Below the pieces are notes generated by a model. That model searched no databases. It was not told where the DNA came from and saw only the letters and a list, made by a program, of their open reading frames with translations. Positions 12,686 through 36,549 of a stretch of DNA of 36,549 nucleotides are shown piece by piece. The stretch comes from a virus, in IMG/VR virus record IMGVR_UViG_3300031853_000132, positions 1-36,549 of that record; one strand, written 5' to 3'. Made by a program: the position numbers and the translations under genes. Numbering within the stretch: position 1 is the first letter of the stretch; each line of letters begins with the position of its first letter.

Positions 12686-14353
12686 ATGGCTACATTAGAC
12701 TTAACACTGGCAGCATTGCGACTTGCGGGGCTTACAAACTTTACGCCCGAGTTCGGCACAAAGGAAGCCGACGGCGTAAGCGTAAGCACTGAAAACGTAT
12801 GCAAAGATATTATGCTGCCGTTTACATTCCAGCGCCCCGTACTCGTAAGCGAAACGAGCGACACTGGAAACATCGAAGCAACCCGCACGCTTGTTTTGAC
12901 AAACAGCGGAATTGTTTTGACACTTGGCCGCGCAACTTTTGCAGGCTGTAAAATCACAGTGCAGACGGGGTTCTCAAGCGGCAGCGCACAGGTTCGCTAC
13001 TTGACCGCCGCCAACACTTACGAAACCGTTACGCTTGCAGCTGGCAACAGCGTTGAGATTGTAAGCAACAGCGACCTTTATTTTTACAAACGGCTGCGTA
13101 TCAATAATTCAATCATCATCAACACAAACGAAAACTTGATACTTAACCGTCGTTATCTTTACCCGTCGGTTTTCCCAGTGGCAAACAGAAACAAAGATAC
13201 CGACTTTGTGGTACAGAATAACCAGCTTTACAGCAAGAACAGCGTATTTATTAGAGCGGGCGCAACCCTGCCGCCGTTCTACGTTGAAAACGTGGGGCTT
13301 TTGCAGTTCCACACAGAAAGCGACATAGAGCTTGACGTAGACGACTGCGACGACACTTGCACAGGGCTTGAAGCAGGAAAAGACTATTTTATTTATTTGA
13401 TTTACAGCCCGGCTTTATTCCCGAACGAAAAAGACAACCTCGGCTTTAAAATCAGTTTGAACGACCCCGACGGAATCAGCTTGTACGGTAATTCAGACAT
13501 TGCAGGCAGCGGCGCGAAACCGATTAAGGCATACGCAGAAGTTGACGGCGCGATTTTGAATGAACAAAACTGTATGTGTATAGGCGGCTTTCATACCGTG
13601 CTTGTAGACTGCGACGCACTCGCAGCAGGCCAGCAGGTGCACCCGCTCACAGATTATACAGCGGGAGCTATTCACCCGTTCACCGTTTGGGACTTGTACC
13701 ACCGCCCGAACGGTACAAGCGTAGGTATGCTTTACAATCCTTGTATAGACAAGTGGGGTTCTTTGTATCTGCTTTCAGAGCGTGCCTTTGACAAGACGGG
13801 CACAGCTGCAAGTTACGGCGGCACATACCCGAAAAACAATATAATTCTTATTTCAGCAGCAAACAAAGAGTTTGTAACTGGAACAACTACAGGCCGCGTT
13901 TTCCCTTGTTTGCGCGGCGAACAGATATTGAGCTTTCAGAAACAGCGCTTGCCGACTTTGCAGGAGTTCACAGCGTTTACACTTGGAAGCCCGCAGGGTT
14001 TGGCAATCAAAGGAGCTGCAAACCCCGTTACTACAGGCGGACACCTTGCAAGCGACAATACGCAGATTATTTCATACTGCGGTATGTTCGACGGCGTGGG
14101 CGTTCTTTGGCAGTGGGGACAGGAAAACGGCTACACTGTTTCTAGCGACTGGCAGACTAACTACAACACAACGCACGACAAAGACGTTAAAGGCGACGCT
14201 TTCAACCCGCAAACACGCGTCTTTTTTGGTGGCCGCTGGGACGATGGTTCGCACTGCGGTTCGCGGGCGTGCATTTGGAGCCATGGGGCATTGGAACTGT
14301 ATGACCATATCGGTTTTCGGGCGGTTGCCGAGCCACGCCATATTAAGGGGTAA
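12686..14353 (+). CDS. Tail fibre / receptor-binding protein with a C-terminal FGE/C-type-lectin-fold domain; DGR target
   Basis: 555 aa. The C-terminus FFGGRWDDGSHCGSRACIWSHGALELYDHIGFRAVAEP carries the GxW..GS.CGSR...GFR(A/V)V signature of the formylglycine-generating-enzyme-type lectin fold used by known DGR targets. It contains the VR. Confidence 0.85.
   Translation: MATLDLTLAALRLAGLTNFTPEFGTKEADGVSVSTENVCKDIMLPFTFQRPVLVSETSDTGNIEATRTLVLTNSGIVLTLGRATFAGCKITVQTGFSSGSAQVRYLTAANTYETVTLAAGNSVEIVSNSDLYFYKRLRINNSIIINTNENLILNRRYLYPSVFPVANRNKDTDFVVQNNQLYSKNSVFIRAGATLPPFYVENVGLLQFHTESDIELDVDDCDDTCTGLEAGKDYFIYLIYSPALFPNEKDNLGFKISLNDPDGISLYGNSDIAGSGAKPIKAYAEVDGAILNEQNCMCIGGFHTVLVDCDALAAGQQVHPLTDYTAGAIHPFTVWDLYHRPNGTSVGMLYNPCIDKWGSLYLLSERAFDKTGTAASYGGTYPKNNIILISAANKEFVTGTTTGRVFPCLRGEQILSFQKQRLPTLQEFTAFTLGSPQGLAIKGAANPVTTGGHLASDNTQIISYCGMFDGVGVLWQWGQENGYTVSSDWQTNYNTTHDKDVKGDAFNPQTRVFFGGRWDDGSHCGSRACIWSHGALELYDHIGFRAVAEPRHIKG
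14226..14331 (+). repeat. DGR variable repeat (VR)
   Basis: Aligns without gaps to 14559-14664 (offset 333). There are 10 mismatches, and all are at positions where the TR base is A. Weaker homology extends back to 14216. Confidence 0.9.
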
Positions 14354-14419
14354 GCACAACCAAGCGGACACCCTACTACGGGAAAAGGGGACAAGGGGGA
14401 ACAGCCCTACAACCCTACA

Positions 14420-14446
14420 GCGGATAGGCACTTTTAGCCTATCCGC
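14420..14446 (+). terminator. Perfect 10-bp hairpin (GCGGATAGGC / GCCTATCCGC, 7-nt loop) downstream of the VR
   Basis: Seen directly. There is no T-tract after it, so it may be a DGR-associated hairpin or an atypical terminator. Confidence 0.4.
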
Positions 14447-14449
14447 ATA

Positions 14450-14463
14450 AATGACTATATAAG
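14450..14463 (+). promoter_or_regulatory. Late-promoter-like motif AATGACTATATAAG upstream of the DGR template repeat
   Basis: Exact 10-mer, about 95 nt upstream of the TR and on the same strand as the TR and RT. Confidence 0.45.
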
Positions 14464-14558
14464 TATAAGCGGCAATCTTGGGTAGCGCGTGACAAAAAAA
14501 CAACCACGACCCGAAAAACGCCCGCCGAGATACTCACATCTTAGCGGGCGCGTCATTC

Positions 14559-14664
14559 TTGGTGGCAACTGGGACAATAGTTCGCACTGCGGTTCGCGGG
14601 CGTACAATTGGAACAATGGGGCATTGGAACTGAATGACAATATCGGTTTTCGGGCGGTTGCCGA
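14559..14664 (+). repeat. DGR template repeat (TR)
   Basis: Non-coding copy of the VR. Read in the VR frame, the variable positions are AAY/AGT/TAC codons (N, N, S, Y, N, N, N, N, N). Homology ends abruptly after 14664. Confidence 0.9.
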
Positions 14665-14840
14665 TACTGAATAAGATTGTAAGAACCCACTTACGCAATA
14701 TCTTTTTAGGCTGGCGCGTTATCCAGTGAGGGGAAACCCTGCAAAATTACTGAATGGGAAGCAATACTCGACTAGTAGGAAATCCGAAAGCCGTTTATTG
14801 ATATACTGGCAGATTGCCGCTATTTTTGGAGTACAACAAA

Positions 14841-16349
14841 GTGAAGCGATACGGTAACTTGTGGCAGCAAGTTTGTACATACGAAAACATAGACAAAGCT
14901 ATACGGCTGACTTTCAGAGGAAAGCGCCGTTATAATGAGTTTAAGGAAATCGAAAAGAACTTGCCGTATTATCGCGAACAGCTGCACGAAATGCTTGTAA
15001 ACGAAAGCTACACCTACGGCGAATATACAATAAAGCACATCTACGAGCCAAAGCCAAGAACGGCACTTGTAGCGCGGACTTTTCCCGACAGATTTTTACA
15101 CCACGCAATAGTAAACGTCGGCGAGCCGATATGGAGCAGCCGCACTTATTACCATTCTTACGCCTGCATTAAGGGCAAGGGCACGCACGCAGCACACAGA
15201 CAGATTGCTAAACTTGTGGCGGGTTATAATTACATTTGCCACTTGGATATACACAGCTTTTACGCCAGCATAGACCACGACGTATTAAAACAGGCATTGC
15301 GCAGGAAAATTAAAGACGTAAAATTTTTACGGTATTGCGACGGCCTTATAGACAATTACCCTACGCCCTGCGGTATTCCTATCGGAAACGCTACAAGCCC
15401 GTGGTTTGGAAATGTTGCACTTTGGGGCGTTGACGACTTCATAAAACACGAATTGAAATTGCCATACGTGCGCTATAACGACGATATGGTAATAGCCAGC
15501 AACGACAAAAGCGAACTGGTAAAAGCCCGTGAACGTGTGCGGGGTTATTTGTGGGAAACAATGGGGCTGACGTTTTCAAAGTCATACATCAAGAACACGC
15601 GGCAAGGTATAAACGCCGTCGGCTATCATTCATATAAAAACAGAAAAAGCGATACAGTAACAATTTTGAAACGCAAAACAGCGCGTAAAATCCGTTTATT
15701 TGTCGCCGAAAAAGCGACCACAGAAGCACTCAAGAGCGTTAAGAGCGCAAACAAGGTGCTGCGAGTGCTTACCAGCTACAACGGGATTTTGACAAATTGC
15801 AGCTGTAATCGGTTCATAGAAAAAATAGACTTTAATAACAAGCTGGAGCTTTTCAAAATCAAGGGGCACGAAATGATTAAACAAATCACAGAATATTATA
15901 ACAACGGAATACTGACGGGCGAAACGCTGACAATAGAAACAGTCGCGGGGCTGCATATTTACATAAGCGGTATTCAGCAGACGAAAAACAAATACTACCA
16001 CGAATATATTTGCGAGGAAAACGGCGAAAAGCTCAAGCAGACAAACGGCAAGAATCCGACGTTATCAGTAATTCAGTTTTATATCGCGGCCAAAGAACAT
16101 GGCAAAGAAGAAAAACAGATACGCGAAAGCGGAAAGTTATATAAAGTATTCAGCTCGGCTTATTCTATTACGAACGCAGCCGAAGCTATGAAAGATATTG
16201 ATTTTAAAAACGACCTTGTTTCTGCAATGTTCACAAAAAGCGGCAAACACCCCGAGCTTGTGCCATACGAAAGCGACTACGCGCAGAAAAAAGGCATAGA
16301 CACTGCGGGCGTATTGCAGAAGCTCGAAACAATCGCAGCCGCTAGTTAA
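14841..16349 (+). CDS. DGR reverse transcriptase with a ~170-aa C-terminal extension
   Basis: GTG start nine nt after GGAG, giving an N-terminus of KRYGNLWQQV. Carries an RT motif B-like PIGNATSPWFGN and the catalytic box RYNDD. The track ORF starts earlier, at a TTG at 14814. Confidence 0.85.
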   Translation: MKRYGNLWQQVCTYENIDKAIRLTFRGKRRYNEFKEIEKNLPYYREQLHEMLVNESYTYGEYTIKHIYEPKPRTALVARTFPDRFLHHAIVNVGEPIWSSRTYYHSYACIKGKGTHAAHRQIAKLVAGYNYICHLDIHSFYASIDHDVLKQALRRKIKDVKFLRYCDGLIDNYPTPCGIPIGNATSPWFGNVALWGVDDFIKHELKLPYVRYNDDMVIASNDKSELVKARERVRGYLWETMGLTFSKSYIKNTRQGINAVGYHSYKNRKSDTVTILKRKTARKIRLFVAEKATTEALKSVKSANKVLRVLTSYNGILTNCSCNRFIEKIDFNNKLELFKIKGHEMIKQITEYYNNGILTGETLTIETVAGLHIYISGIQQTKNKYYHEYICEENGEKLKQTNGKNPTLSVIQFYIAAKEHGKEEKQIRESGKLYKVFSSAYSITNAAEAMKDIDFKNDLVSAMFTKSGKHPELVPYESDYAQKKGIDTAGVLQKLETIAAAS

Positions 16350-17032
16350 TAGCCAAGTTCCATAAAGCGCACGCCACGCACGCGCCCCGTAATAATATTG
16401 TCGTTGATATAGTCGCGTATTTCAGCTCGCAGCGCAGCTTCATTCTTTGGCGAGAAGTCGGCGGTTGTTTTCTGCGCTATAAGGTTTTTAAGATAAACAG
16501 CTATTATGTCATTTTGCGCCGTTATTTCCGTAGCTGTTTGTTTATCATCAAGTTTGAAACCCAGCACAACGGAAAGCGAAACCTTGCCGCCGTCGCTTGT
16601 TTTGTTTTCGGCTGCTATTCCCTTAGACCATGATAAAACCTCACGATTTTGTGAATAATCACTGCTCGGAATTACTGCAAGGTTCAGCGGTATATCGTCA
16701 ATGTTTACGGAGTACGCCGCGCCGTTTGCTTTTGCTACCAGCTTCAAAGGCTTTACTTTGTATATATTGAACCGCTCGCCGTTCTTTTTTGTAAAATCTG
16801 TAAAATCAATAGAATTGCCGCCCGCTGGTAAATCGTCGGTGTAAAAATACTCACCGTTCAGCGTGTATGTGATTGCGGGAATATCTGCGCCCGTGTCATT
16901 GTTTACCCAGTAGAGCACAGGCGCGGCTTTTGGATCGCGTGAGTTATACTCAAGCGAAATATTAAGCTGCTTGGAACATGAGCAAAGCAGAGCCGCAAGA
17001 ATTAAAGATACAAAAATAGATTTTACTTTCAT
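16346..17032 (-). CDS. Lipoprotein with a FliL-like C-terminal domain (accessory gene)
   Basis: The ATG at 17032 follows GAGGTG. Signal peptide MKVKSIFVSLILAALLCSCS has a lipobox-like Cys. The C-terminal pattern (LSVVLGF...IIAVYLKNLI...LRAEIRDYIN...VRGVRFMELGY) resembles the FliL family (from memory). Confidence 0.55.
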   Translation of the reverse strand: MKVKSIFVSLILAALLCSCSKQLNISLEYNSRDPKAAPVLYWVNNDTGADIPAITYTLNGEYFYTDDLPAGGNSIDFTDFTKKNGERFNIYKVKPLKLVAKANGAAYSVNIDDIPLNLAVIPSSDYSQNREVLSWSKGIAAENKTSDGGKVSLSVVLGFKLDDKQTATEITAQNDIIAVYLKNLIAQKTTADFSPKNEAALRAEIRDYINDNIITGRVRGVRFMELGY

Positions 17033-17087
17033 GTTTACACCTCGCAAAAGATTATAACACGACTTTTCAAAAAGTGTGTAAAAAAAA

Positions 17088-18338
17088 TTAACCTGCGCGG
17101 ACAGTCGCCCGCCCGCTATGTTTATCAGCGTAAAAATATCTGTAAATTAAATCTTTTTCAACTGCTGGCATAGAATCGCCCACAATATCGCAAAGCGGTT
17201 CGGCAAGCTCGATGGGGTAATACTTGCCGCCGATATAAGCCCGCAGCCCGTAACGCTCGGACAAACACAGGGTAAACGAAACGCAAGCGGCGCGAGCTGT
17301 AAGCAGATTAAACTTGTAACCGTGATAAATAAAGCTGCCGTTTGCTCGGGTTTTCTTTTCGCAGCGAACAGAAAAAAGAAAGTCAAAATCTTTGACGGCT
17401 GGCGGGTTTTGCCAGTGCAGCTCGGAATCCTGCGCAGAAACGGAAAAACGGGCGTTAAATCCCTCGACGAAATCGGCAAGAAAAGCGTTTGCTTTTTCGA
17501 TAGTGTCGATTTTTAAGAAGCGGAAAATATAAGGCAATCGGCCTTGCAGCGTTTGCCATAGTCGCTCGATACGCCCTTTTGCCTGCGGGCTATAAGCTGC
17601 AATCAATTCTATGTTTAATTCTTGGCAGGTTTTCTGCCATTGCGTTTGTGCTTTTTCCGCGCCTGCTAATTGCTCCTCAAGAGTTGCGCCACGGTTCACA
17701 AAAAAGCAGCTGGATCTATCCGAGTAAATCGCCCGCGGCAGCTTTCCGCCCGTTCGCTCGAACACTTGAAAAAGCAGCTGGTAATAGCCCAGCAAACATT
17801 CATTTTCGCAGAAATACAAAGCTACTACTTTGTGCGTTGCGTCGTCGATTGCACCGTGCAAACAAACTTTGTGGCCGTTCATAAACCAGTTATGGCTTGA
17901 ACCGTCAATCTGTATTAAGTCGCCCTCGTTTGGTCGTTCGGAGCGCGGCAGGTGCAGTTTTTTTTCGCGTACAGGAATACGAGCACGCGGCGAAACAATA
18001 CCAGCACCCGAAAGCGCATTGTAAACAGTGGCATAAGAGGGCACTTTTTTATAGTGCAGATAGTCGGCGCAATCGTCGCGAAAAGAAGCAAACGGGGTGC
18101 CGCTGAACTGCTCATAATCTGCGACAATCTTTGCAGAATCGTATTGTTTATTCTTTGGAGTGCGCCCAGTGTTGCCGTGAATAAAGATTGAATCGCCGTA
18201 TTTTCTGTAACGATTTTTTAATCGCGTGACAGAATACGGCGCTATCCCGATAGCTTTTGCAGCTTTACGGACTGAGATTTTACCAGCGCAGCACATCGGT
18301 ATATACTGCATTTTCTTTGTGTGTAACTCGTAATTCAC
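17088..18338 (-). CDS. DDE (rve/integrase-core) transposase with N-terminal HTH, IS481/ISNCY-like
   Basis: 416 aa. HTH region ISVRKAAKAIGIAPYSVTRLKNRY. Candidate catalytic residues in IQIDGSSH, IYSDRSS and KGRIERLW. Confidence 0.75.
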   Translation of the reverse strand: MNYELHTKKMQYIPMCCAGKISVRKAAKAIGIAPYSVTRLKNRYRKYGDSIFIHGNTGRTPKNKQYDSAKIVADYEQFSGTPFASFRDDCADYLHYKKVPSYATVYNALSGAGIVSPRARIPVREKKLHLPRSERPNEGDLIQIDGSSHNWFMNGHKVCLHGAIDDATHKVVALYFCENECLLGYYQLLFQVFERTGGKLPRAIYSDRSSCFFVNRGATLEEQLAGAEKAQTQWQKTCQELNIELIAAYSPQAKGRIERLWQTLQGRLPYIFRFLKIDTIEKANAFLADFVEGFNARFSVSAQDSELHWQNPPAVKDFDFLFSVRCEKKTRANGSFIYHGYKFNLLTARAACVSFTLCLSERYGLRAYIGGKYYPIELAEPLCDIVGDSMPAVEKDLIYRYFYADKHSGRATVRAG

Positions 18339-18384: not shown

Positions 18385-18410
18385 ACAAAATGGAACAATT
18401 GGAACACTTG
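18385..18410. repeat. Left arm of a 26-bp inverted repeat (ACAAAATGGAACAATTGGAACACTTG)
   Basis: The reverse complement matches 18538-18563 at 25 of 26 positions. Contains two GGAACA boxes. Confidence 0.85.
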
Positions 18411-18537
18411 CTCCATTTGTCCCACGTGTTCCATTGTAAAAAACAGCGTATTTTTAACGCATTTTTGCACGCGCGTTAAACGCTGCGCCCCGTAAAAACC
18501 GCCCCTTGTAAATCCTTATAGTATATAGACTTTGGAA

Positions 18538-18563
18538 CAAGTGTTCCAAATGTTCCATTTTGT
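18538..18563. repeat. Right arm of a 26-bp inverted repeat (CAAGTGTTCCAAATGTTCCATTTTGT)
   Basis: See the left arm. An extra TGTTCCATTG box lies at 18427-18436. Confidence 0.85.
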
Positions 18564-23236: not shown

Positions 23237-24076
23237 ATGATTGGATATAAAGCCTTTGATAAAGATTTAAAGTGTCGTGGTATGCAATTCGAGGTTGGAA
23301 AAACATACAAAACCTACGCAAAAGAAAACTTAAAACTATGCAGTGACACTGTAATACATTTTTGTAGAGAGTTAAACAAAATTGAAAGAGTTAGTAGCTA
23401 CACAATTGCTAATAGTCGAATTTGTGAAGTAATCGCCAGCGGCGAAATTGTAGACGACGGCGAAAAATACGGAACGAATGAAATAACAATTTTGCGTGAG
23501 TTGTCTGAAGAAGAAAAAGTTAAATATAACAATTGGAACTCGGGCGATTGGAACTCGGGCAATTGGAACTCGGGCGATTGGAACTCGGGCAATTGGAACT
23601 CGGGCAATCGTAACTCGGGCGATTGGAACTCGGGCAATCGTAACTCGGGCAATTGTAACTCGGGCAATTGTAACTCGGGCAATCGTAACTCGGGCGATTG
23701 GAACTCGGGCAATTGGAACTCGGGCGATTGGAACTCGGGCTTTTTTAACACAAACGAGCCGCCAGTAAGAATCTTTAATAAAAATACAAAAACAAAAAAA
23801 GAAAATATTAACTTTCCGTCGTTTCTTTCTTTTGATTTAACTTTGTGGGTGTCACACGACACAGCAACAGAGGAAGAAAAGAAAATTCATAAAAAAGAAA
23901 TCGAAACCGCAGGCGGATTTTTAAAAACTCTTACGTACAAAGAGGCATTTAGACGCGCTTGGAATAGAGCAACAAAAGAGGAACATAAAAAACTTTTAGC
24001 GCTGCCTAATTGGAATAATAAGATTTTTAAAGAAATTAGCGGCATAGACGCAGAAAAGGAAATTGAGAACGAATGA
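23237..24076 (+). CDS. Repeat protein with 14 tandem (W/R/C)NSG(D/N) pentapeptide units
   Basis: 279 aa. The central region is encoded by 15-bp tandem repeats. Confidence 0.6.
   Translation: MIGYKAFDKDLKCRGMQFEVGKTYKTYAKENLKLCSDTVIHFCRELNKIERVSSYTIANSRICEVIASGEIVDDGEKYGTNEITILRELSEEEKVKYNNWNSGDWNSGNWNSGDWNSGNWNSGNRNSGDWNSGNRNSGNCNSGNCNSGNRNSGDWNSGNWNSGDWNSGFFNTNEPPVRIFNKNTKTKKENINFPSFLSFDLTLWVSHDTATEEEKKIHKKEIETAGGFLKTLTYKEAFRRAWNRATKEEHKKLLALPNWNNKIFKEISGIDAEKEIENE
23531..23740 (+). repeat. 15-bp tandem repeat x14 ((a/g)at(tgg/cgt/tgt)aactcgggc)
   Basis: Counted unit by unit. All units are in frame and vary only at the first base and at the tgg/cgt/tgt codon (bases 4-6). Confidence 0.95.
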
Positions 24077-36196: not shown

Positions 36197-36549
36197 ATGA
36201 AACGTGATTTTTTAGAGGGTTTGAAACTTGAAGCCGACGTAATCGACAAGATTATGAGAGAAAACGGCAAGGACATCGAAAGCGCAAAAGCAAAGTTCGC
36301 CGATTATGACGACCTTAAAAAGCAGCTTGAAACTGCAACCGCAACGCTTGAGAAGTTCAAGGACTACGACCAAACAAAGGCAGATGTTGAAAAATACAAA
36401 GCCGAGCTGAAAAAATCGCAGGAAGAAAGCGCGGCAAAAATCGCCGCTATGGAGCGTTCGGGAAAAGTAAAAGATTACCTTTCGGGCAAAAAGTTTGTAA
36501 ACAAAATCACACAGGACGCAATCACCGCGAAAATGTGCGAAGCATTGGG
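36197..36549 (+). CDS. Scaffolding protein, 5' part (runs off the window and continues at 1-317 via the terminal overlap)
   Basis: ATG after AGGGAG. Coiled-coil Lys/Glu-rich sequence. The combined ORF is 180 aa. Confidence 0.6.
   Translation, partial: MKRDFLEGLKLEADVIDKIMRENGKDIESAKAKFADYDDLKKQLETATATLEKFKDYDQTKADVEKYKAELKKSQEESAAKIAAMERSGKVKDYLSGKKFVNKITQDAITAKMCEAL
36423..36549 (+). repeat. Terminal overlap copy 2 (identical to 1-127)
   Basis: Same 127-bp string as 1-127. Consistent with circular assembly or terminal redundancy. Confidence 0.95.

Follow-up and report, generated by a model that had tools for sequence, protein, structure and literature searches.

To our knowledge, all mechanistic and structural work on diversity-generating retroelements (DGRs), like the engineered E. 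coli systems for DGR mutagenesis, is based on a single pair of proteins, the Bordetella phage BPP-1 reverse transcriptase (RT) bRT and its partner Avd. In the bRT complex, Avd docks on the N-terminal extension of the RT, and the spacer RNA envelops the enzyme and lies over Avd (bioRxiv 10.1101/2023.10.23.563531). In a set of 372 DGRs, avd was present in 74%, and Architecture A, a core of template repeat (TR) and RT with no accessory gene, in 75; RT lineage 3 lacks avd, with no remote avd in those genomes, avd genes are poorly conserved, and DGR RTs measure ~300-500 amino acids (aa), ~20% carrying an extension, up to ~150 aa long, in which no motif can be recognised (Wu et al. 2018, PMC5758913). 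The crAssphage LMMB element, in the order target-variable repeat (VR)-TR-RT, is another Avd-less member of lineage 3 (PMC7290462). Here we analyse a DGR in the IMG/VR virus record IMGVR_UViG_3300031853_000132, positions 1 to 36,549 (the window, 36,549 nt), in which a long RT is encoded and avd is missing. The initial annotation put this forward as a minimal architecture; as a novelty that does not stand, since Avd-less target-TR-RT DGRs had already been described (PMC5758913, PMC7290462). Avd absence and an RT extension are as such already known, and the content of the extension is the new part. We consider it likely that the element is a DGR of the Avd-less type with an RT naturally fused to a candidate non-Avd accessory factor, and is hence not minimal.

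The RT gene is divided as follows.

14814..16349, + strand: RT open reading frame (ORF), with likely start GTG 14841 and GGAG 9 nt upstream, giving 502 aa
14841..15863, + strand: RT core, aa 1-341, comprising N-terminal extension, fingers, palm and thumb, equivalent to the whole of bRT (phmmer, AF2, Foldseek, Pfam RVT_1)
15864..16268, + strand: RT C-terminal domain, aa 342-476, predicted beta-rich, conserved in P0001-P0010 (AF2 pLDDT ~80-90)
16269..16349, + strand: RT C-terminal helical tail, aa 477-502, and stop codon, with a 4-nt overlap with the convergent lipoprotein gene

The GTG start agrees with the N-termini of homologues, and the initial estimate of an RT of ~500 aa with an extension holds, ~165 aa lying beyond a complete DGR RT. 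Residues ~2-288 align to bRT (328 aa; PDB 8ub7) at 29% identity (phmmer against the PDB, E 6e-34), and the AlphaFold2 (AF2) model of the RT, built with 78 homologues (mean predicted local distance difference test, pLDDT, 88), finds as its best Foldseek match in the PDB the bRT of 8ub7, with a target-normalised template modelling (TM) score of 0.86 over 334 columns that span the whole target. Because this structural match covers all of bRT, the first ~335 residues are predicted to be a complete DGR RT and the remaining ~165 to be extra. The catalytic YNDD is found at residues 212-215; with this YxDD motif in its RT and the adenine pattern of its TR/VR pair (see below), the element shows two hallmarks of a DGR. 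From its N-terminus onward, the protein is a bRT-like enzyme (residues 1-~335) followed by a long linker helix and then, at ~342-476, by a domain homologous to the candidate accessory family described below.

The initial annotation also held the tail to be distinct, which is borne out by homologues and by AF2: both point to a separate, conserved, folded domain. Among 98 RT homologues drawn from a 5.8-billion-protein collection, the tail is common to P0001-P0010 only, eight of which are full-length (488-511 aa, 44-100% identical) and one of which, P0009 (291 aa), is a fragment; nearly all the others, at 310-440 aa, align to the core only, with ~40-65% query coverage. An exhaustive HMMER search with the tail alone against 1.84 billion representative proteins returned its own RT clade and two spurious repeat proteins, so that the tail is not a thumb extension common to Avd-dependent DGRs, an outcome that had been named as fatal to the proposal. 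The tails of other long DGR RTs (P0064, P0067, P0085, P0091, P0097) are unrelated to it, deposited phage genomes hold no DNA or protein match, and neither Pfam, NCBIfam nor PHROG contains a matching family. Modelled by themselves with AF2 (pLDDT 82), residues 326-502 begin with a long helix, continue with seven strands and interspersed helices and end in a terminal helix. An Avd-like four-helix bundle or HRDC domain, as first suggested for the tail, is ruled out by the Pfam, NCBIfam and PHROG scans and by these beta-rich models, along with an isoelectric point (pI) of 6.6 and the lack of any profile relation to Avd; a MutS_I-like extension, of the type Wu et al. reported for three RTs, was also considered and has no Pfam match. 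As to RT lengths in databases, two of the homologues, P0057 and P0083, start with a VR/TR-like peptide (e.g. GGNWNNGVNAG); these N-termini are an annotation artefact, gene callers having extended the RT ORF to take in the TR, and make the RTs look longer than they are.

The tail appears to have a free-standing counterpart. The nearest short-RT relatives, P0013, P0014 and P0021 (RTs of 337-347 aa, 35-37% identical to the window RT), belong to loci with an Mtd-like target, TR, RT and no Avd, and in each of them the RT stop codon overlaps the start of an ORF of 99-110 aa. A profile built from the tail (A5, hmmsearch) matches all three small ORFs and no other flanking ORF (E ~4e-4 in the 12-sequence set). 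The small-ORF family (A6) has no Pfam, NCBIfam or PDB match and matches phrog_19665 only, annotated as 'unknown function'. Comparison of the tail with the small-protein family by hhalign gives a probability of 82% and an E of 1e-5, and the hidden Markov model (HMM) of the small protein matches the tail of P0010, the most divergent fused RT, at residues 374-438 (27 bits, E 1.8e-8). The joint alignment (A7) is collinear across the entire small protein, with the blocks LxGE..I..i....I.I, (S/T)K(Y/F), xxQF, F(T/S)(G/S)S, (P/D)F and KK, and invariant G, QF, F and K positions, common to both; relative to the free-standing form, the tail has a hairpin insertion, a helical insertion, a 5-residue insertion and an extra C-terminal helix. 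By profile similarity, through the profile-profile comparison and the P0010 bridge, the tail falls within a phrog_19665-like family, and on these alignments the tail domain is a predicted homologue of a ~100-aa RT-coupled protein family. Comparison of the free-standing family with BPP-1 Avd by hhalign returned a probability of 0.08%.

A profile search places at least 886 clusters in the small-protein family, the 120 best of which are all 94-118-aa 'hypothetical proteins', with a pI of ~8-9 in the members computed. IMG/VR contains 196 small-ORF loci, and in every one of the 80 examined a DGR-type RT lies on the same strand: the RT stop falls within -43 to +8 nt of the small ORF in ~68, and in ~10 another ~100-aa ORF intervenes between the two (gap ~310-370 nt). 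The small ORF is likewise RT-adjacent in 7/7 contigs (the P0013, P0014 and P0021 loci and four further diverse contigs) and in 16 of the 17 informative loci from GTDB metagenome-assembled genomes (MAGs), where the family occurs in Treponema, Nitrospirae, Bacillota, Draconibacterium, Desulfobacterota, Fibrobacterota, Saccharibacteria, Omnitrophota and an ANME-2 archaeon. Every small-ORF-linked locus checked has a VR/TR pair, and no Avd was detected among the neighbours of the small ORF (precomputed Pfam for the 7 contigs; PHROG for 72 flanking ORFs from about a dozen diverse loci). The overlap of its start with the RT stop suggests translational coupling. At one locus, L045, the small ORF occupies the Avd slot between VR (1430-1563) and TR (1901-2034), and L111 probably resembles it, with the small ORF in the VR-TR gap. 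Literature searches turned up no described non-Avd accessory of this kind, the sparsely documented PAG1-4 of Wu et al. not having been compared by sequence.

Next to these genes, at L013:5371-5661, L015:5071-5355 and L017:5315-5629 and in 42 of the 80 IMG/VR loci, a second conserved ORF of ~95-125 aa comes directly after the RT-coupled small ORF, with the N-terminus M(R/K)G(F/M)P..L.TKQDYLNCL..YPEETK and an acidic pI (4.2-6.3 in the three members computed). This ORF, absent from the window, may be a further cassette component or a mere neighbouring phage gene.

The same linkage data bear on what the domain is for. It could be a decoration of the RT peculiar to this lineage and play no part in retrohoming, serving in virion or tail docking or in stabilisation, its similarity to the small ORF reflecting descent from a passenger gene; DGR cassettes do lie where tail modules end, a place in which phages often carry small genes, Wu et al. 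2018 caution that conserved flanking genes could be nothing more than genes of the phage, crAss-like DGRs manage without the domain, and the tail has neither an assigned biochemical function nor a significant PDB match. We nevertheless regard decoration as unlikely, given that the linkage is to the RT rather than to the phage backbone, holding at 80/80 viral loci, across several RT clades and on MAG contigs of ~ten phyla, that the small-ORF start overlaps the RT stop in most loci, that in L045 the small gene has stayed with the cassette while shifting to the VR-TR gap, and that the in-frame fusion is kept across RTs down to 44% identity. A functional partnership of the domain with the RT would be the most economical reading, because the genes are tightly coupled, the small gene has moved into the Avd slot and the fusion has been kept down to that level of identity.

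If the domain is such a partner, the following mechanism can be envisaged. The transcript of TR and spacer would fold into a structured RNA, from which the RT would copy the TR, misincorporating opposite adenines, and the fused domain would act as its nucleic-acid-binding or ribonucleoprotein (RNP)-organising partner, a role akin to that of Avd for bRT but with an unrelated fold and attached after the thumb instead of docking on the N-terminal extension. We infer that retrohoming requires the small protein or domain, in a nucleic-acid or RNP role. Only tentatively do we go further and propose that the ~100-aa family could be a new accessory class, a small beta-barrel nucleic-acid binder replacing Avd in a large bacterial, archaeal and phage DGR lineage, and that the window RT and its TR-spacer RNA could suffice to make adenine-mutagenic cDNA. 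The suggestion in the initial annotation that the tail supplies an accessory function in cis gains comparative support, its homologue being RT-coupled in Avd-less cassettes, and loses the Avd-like form it had been given. With its gene tightly coupled to that of the RT in hundreds of Avd-less DGR cassettes, the small protein is a concrete candidate RT partner, and the clade in which it is naturally fused to the RT offers a direct handle on Avd-independent retrohoming. Were the domain required, it would represent a second solution for assembling the DGR RNP, and could give a more compact, one-protein enzyme for targeted hypermutation tools.

Several observations weigh against this interpretation. 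The homology signal is moderate: the small-protein HMM scores the window's own tail at only E 1.4 and the PHROG 19665 profile has no match to it, and because these direct matches are not significant, the case for homology rests on the profile-profile comparison and the bridging P0010. Foldseek finds nothing significant for the tail in the PDB (best E 0.1, TM < 0.3) and only weak matches in BFVD (TM 0.3-0.5), and these, which include other long phage RTs and a 99-aa 'ssDNA binding protein', are suggestive and not usable. The shared core order beta1-beta2-beta3-alpha-beta4-beta5, taken from the secondary structure in a model of the fused form only, would be that of a putative OB-like small barrel and would suit binding of RNA or single-stranded DNA. 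The tail domain is not strongly basic here, with its pI of 6.6 against 8.5-9.1 in relatives. The neighbour-joining tree of RT cores, in which the fused RTs are monophyletic and nested among small-ORF-linked clades, as would fit a single fusion event, carries no support values. Avd and the small protein are both missing from crAss-like DGRs whose RTs are of a similar type, so the factor is not universally required by Avd-less DGRs. Finally, linkage and fusion indicate functional association and not mechanism.

The absence of Avd can be judged across the entire phage. The window ends are identical over 127 nt (1-127 = 36423-36549), so the window is a complete circular tailed-phage genome of ~36.4 kb, and the search for Avd was therefore genome-wide. 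Pfam was run on every stop-to-stop ORF of 80-260 aa in all six frames, and PHROG, in which phrog_3206 is the DGR-specific Avd family, on all likely genes and every ORF around the DGR. As the initial annotation had it, neither scan found an Avd or HRDC gene in the phage genome, a detection that would likewise have been fatal to the proposal, while ordinary phage genes were recovered and, as positive control, BPP-1 Avd (AY029185) matched phrog_3206 with an E of 9e-29. The VR-TR area was correctly described as tight, with ORF 14489..14674 being the TR read in the VR frame, but the quoted spacing of 227 bp becomes 217 nt with our boundaries, and this ORF is not the sole one, as shadow ORFs of 45-155 aa, none of which matches any family, occupy other frames or the other strand. 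The host or a co-resident element might provide an Avd or other accessory in trans, or the phage might encode an Avd too divergent for profiles, leaving the tail irrelevant to the missing gene. We think this very unlikely: no ORF of the complete genome has a Pfam or PHROG Avd match, the 217-nt gap leaves no room for a gene, no Avd lies near 19 related or small-ORF-linked loci, and whole genomes with Avd-less DGRs contain no remote avd (PMC5758913), even if the poor conservation of avd genes (PMC5758913) would ease the escape of a divergent one and no host is indicated, the 185,579 GTDB species genomes being devoid of any relative of the fused RT tail. Nor does the loss of Avd call for the extension as its explanation: Avd is missing from the short-RT relatives and from crAss-like phage DGRs as well.

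The remaining parts of the element lie upstream of the RT.

12686..14353, + strand: DGR target gene, 555 aa, putative Mtd-like tail or receptor-binding protein (ORF with VR at its 3' end)
14216..14331, + strand: VR, 116-nt repeat of the TR at the 3' end of the target ORF
14420..14446, strand not assigned: perfect 10-bp hairpin GCGGATAGGC / GCCTATCCGC with a 7-nt loop, read directly from the sequence
14549..14664, + strand: TR, 116-nt repeat with 25 adenines, A at 11/12 mismatches
14665..14840, + strand: TR-RT spacer, 176 nt, non-coding (conservation, predicted stems)

The target gene follows that of a 1643-aa tail protein, and its product has a weak Pfam mtd_2nd match (E 0.0045). The two repeats differ at 12 of 116 nt, and because the downstream copy has A at 11 of these 12 differences, 14549-14664 is the TR and 14216-14331 the VR. 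The VR ends 22 nt before the target stop codon, which is 195 nt from the TR; the hairpin, which begins 66 nt past this stop codon, is either a terminator for the tail operon or a hairpin for DGR target recognition. The spacer, like Sp of BPP-1, probably makes up the structured 3' portion of the DGR RNA. In related contigs it is better conserved than the RT coding sequence (98% vs 81% identity in L002, 91% vs 85% in L007, 76% vs 70% in L001), and RNAalifold predicts stems with 10 pairs showing compensatory changes, thin evidence from 5 sequences only.

Seven VR-TR pairs, from the window and six related phage contigs, were compared. In six of them, 56/63 differences fall at TR adenines, the TR of the seventh, L005, being corrupted. 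The TR is 100% identical in L002, L003, L004 and L009, despite RT gene identity falling to 81%; near-identical phages with this invariant TR have different VRs, and target orthologues in related loci are at 72-96% DNA identity, yet their VR differs. Because of the adenine-specific VR differences, the TR identity and the spacer conservation, the fused-RT, Avd-less element appears, from these comparisons, to be functional. That the long RT ORF is instead an assembly frameshift artefact joining two genes, or the DGR a decaying, inactive copy, is hardly credible: the same uninterrupted fusion recurs in protein clusters from independent samples (44-100% identical) and in six IMG/VR contigs, and the adenine specificity of VR differences between close relatives speaks against decay, even though degenerate relatives do exist. 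The copy at the TR position of L005 (8734-8849) retains only 12 adenines where the window TR has 25, and the substitutions lie at sites that used to be A, as would be seen had mutagenised cDNA replaced the TR itself; L009 misses ~590 nt inside the RT gene, and L010 is without the TR and the 5' half of the RT. These three are decaying copies of the same DGR.

Motif 4 of the window RT, IGNATSP (15381-15401, residues 181-187), reads GxxxSP and departs from the DGR signature [I/V/L]GxxxSQ; GxxxSP is found in P0001-P0008, and SQ is kept in P0010 and the short relatives. The VR/TR pattern in the window stays adenine-specific despite this variant. The DGR of crAssE-Sib has the same GxxxSP, reported as unique, and is missed by myDGR (PMC11054128), and bRT Q187P retains adenine mutagenesis (PMC7826257); because of these two cases, GxxxSQ is a diagnostic motif and not an essential one. 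The variant matters in practice: DGRs of this kind reportedly escape detection tools that look for GxxxSQ (PMC11054128).

The phage itself contains head, tail, lysis and replication modules (Pfam and PHROG scans), and the DGR sits at the end of the tail module. No close relative was found in 50,697 deposited phage genomes or 185,579 species genomes, the close relatives being the six IMG/VR contigs. Downstream, the convergent lipoprotein ORF (16346-17047, - strand; signal peptide ending LLCSC, C-terminal half FliL-like below threshold) overlaps the RT 3' end by 4 nt, exactly as initially described. Because L002 and L003 hold three other small genes in its place (141 aa, 131 aa and a 62-aa rubrerythrin-like one), this slot behaves as a swappable cargo (moron) position. 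Beyond it lies a gene for a 416-aa ISNCY-type DDE transposase (17088-18338, - strand; NCBIfam, 311 bits), present at the same site in all related phage contigs at 72-96% DNA identity. An insertion sequence disrupting the cassette was rejected as an account of this ISNCY-like gene, its relatives keeping it at the identical site; it is probably the phage's own integration or transposition enzyme. Just 5' of this minus-strand gene, a 31-nt inverted repeat (18385-18415 / 18533-18563) flanks an AT-rich TATGTA microsatellite. Its first arm includes the core CAATTGGAAC of a 15-nt unit, CAATTGGAACTCGGG, which is repeated in 14 tandem copies at 23530-23740 inside ORF 23237..24076 of the replication module; the repeats and the inverted-repeat core may be iterons or protein-binding sites.

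Set against BPP-1 (mtd-avd-TR-brt), the window element has an RT core of the same enzyme type (29% identity, TM 0.86), a VR at the 3' end of a gene for a putative Mtd-like tail protein, adenine-specific mutagenesis, and a TR upstream of the RT with a spacer of ~145-176 nt. It differs in that BPP-1 places the 387-nt avd gene between VR and TR, where the window has a 217-nt gap and no avd, in that bRT is 328 aa long with no extra subdomains, whereas the window RT has 502 aa with its additional domain following the thumb via a long helix, and in motif 4, GxxxSP as opposed to the GxxxSQ of bRT. Group II intron RTs, which also have a related RT core and an added module (D, endonuclease) after the thumb, offer an analogy only: the tail has no sequence or structure similarity to these modules, Foldseek matches end at the thumb, and the window has a TR/VR pair and no intron RNA.

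HRDC, MSL (MutS-like) and CH1 are, like the small-protein family, non-Avd genes of subsets of DGRs, and CH1 too occurs only in Avd-less cassettes (PMC5758913). CH1 is, however, 160-169 aa long and acidic (pI 4.7), compared with 94-118 aa and a pI of ~8-9 for the small family, and neither the tail nor the small-protein family has a Pfam match to HRDC or MutS. In gene order, target-VR, TR and RT with no avd, the window resembles Architecture A1/lineage 3 as in crAssphage LMMB and the crAss-like cr52_1, in the latter of which the target is followed by a 264-nt gap and then a 341-aa RT. RTs of crAss-like phages are the best RT matches among the 50,697 deposited phage genomes (36-37% identity), no more than an indirect hint that the window RT might belong to lineage 3, but they are ~340 aa long and tail-less, with no small ORF of the family after them. 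The window DGR has the A1 core order target-TR-RT with no accessory gene, and carries an accessory-like domain inside the RT gene itself. Closest to it are the small-ORF-linked (phrog_19665) cassettes, which are Avd-less, have an Mtd-like target and present the same domain directly after the RT thumb; there it is a separate gene of 94-118 aa, whereas in the window it is fused in frame and enlarged.

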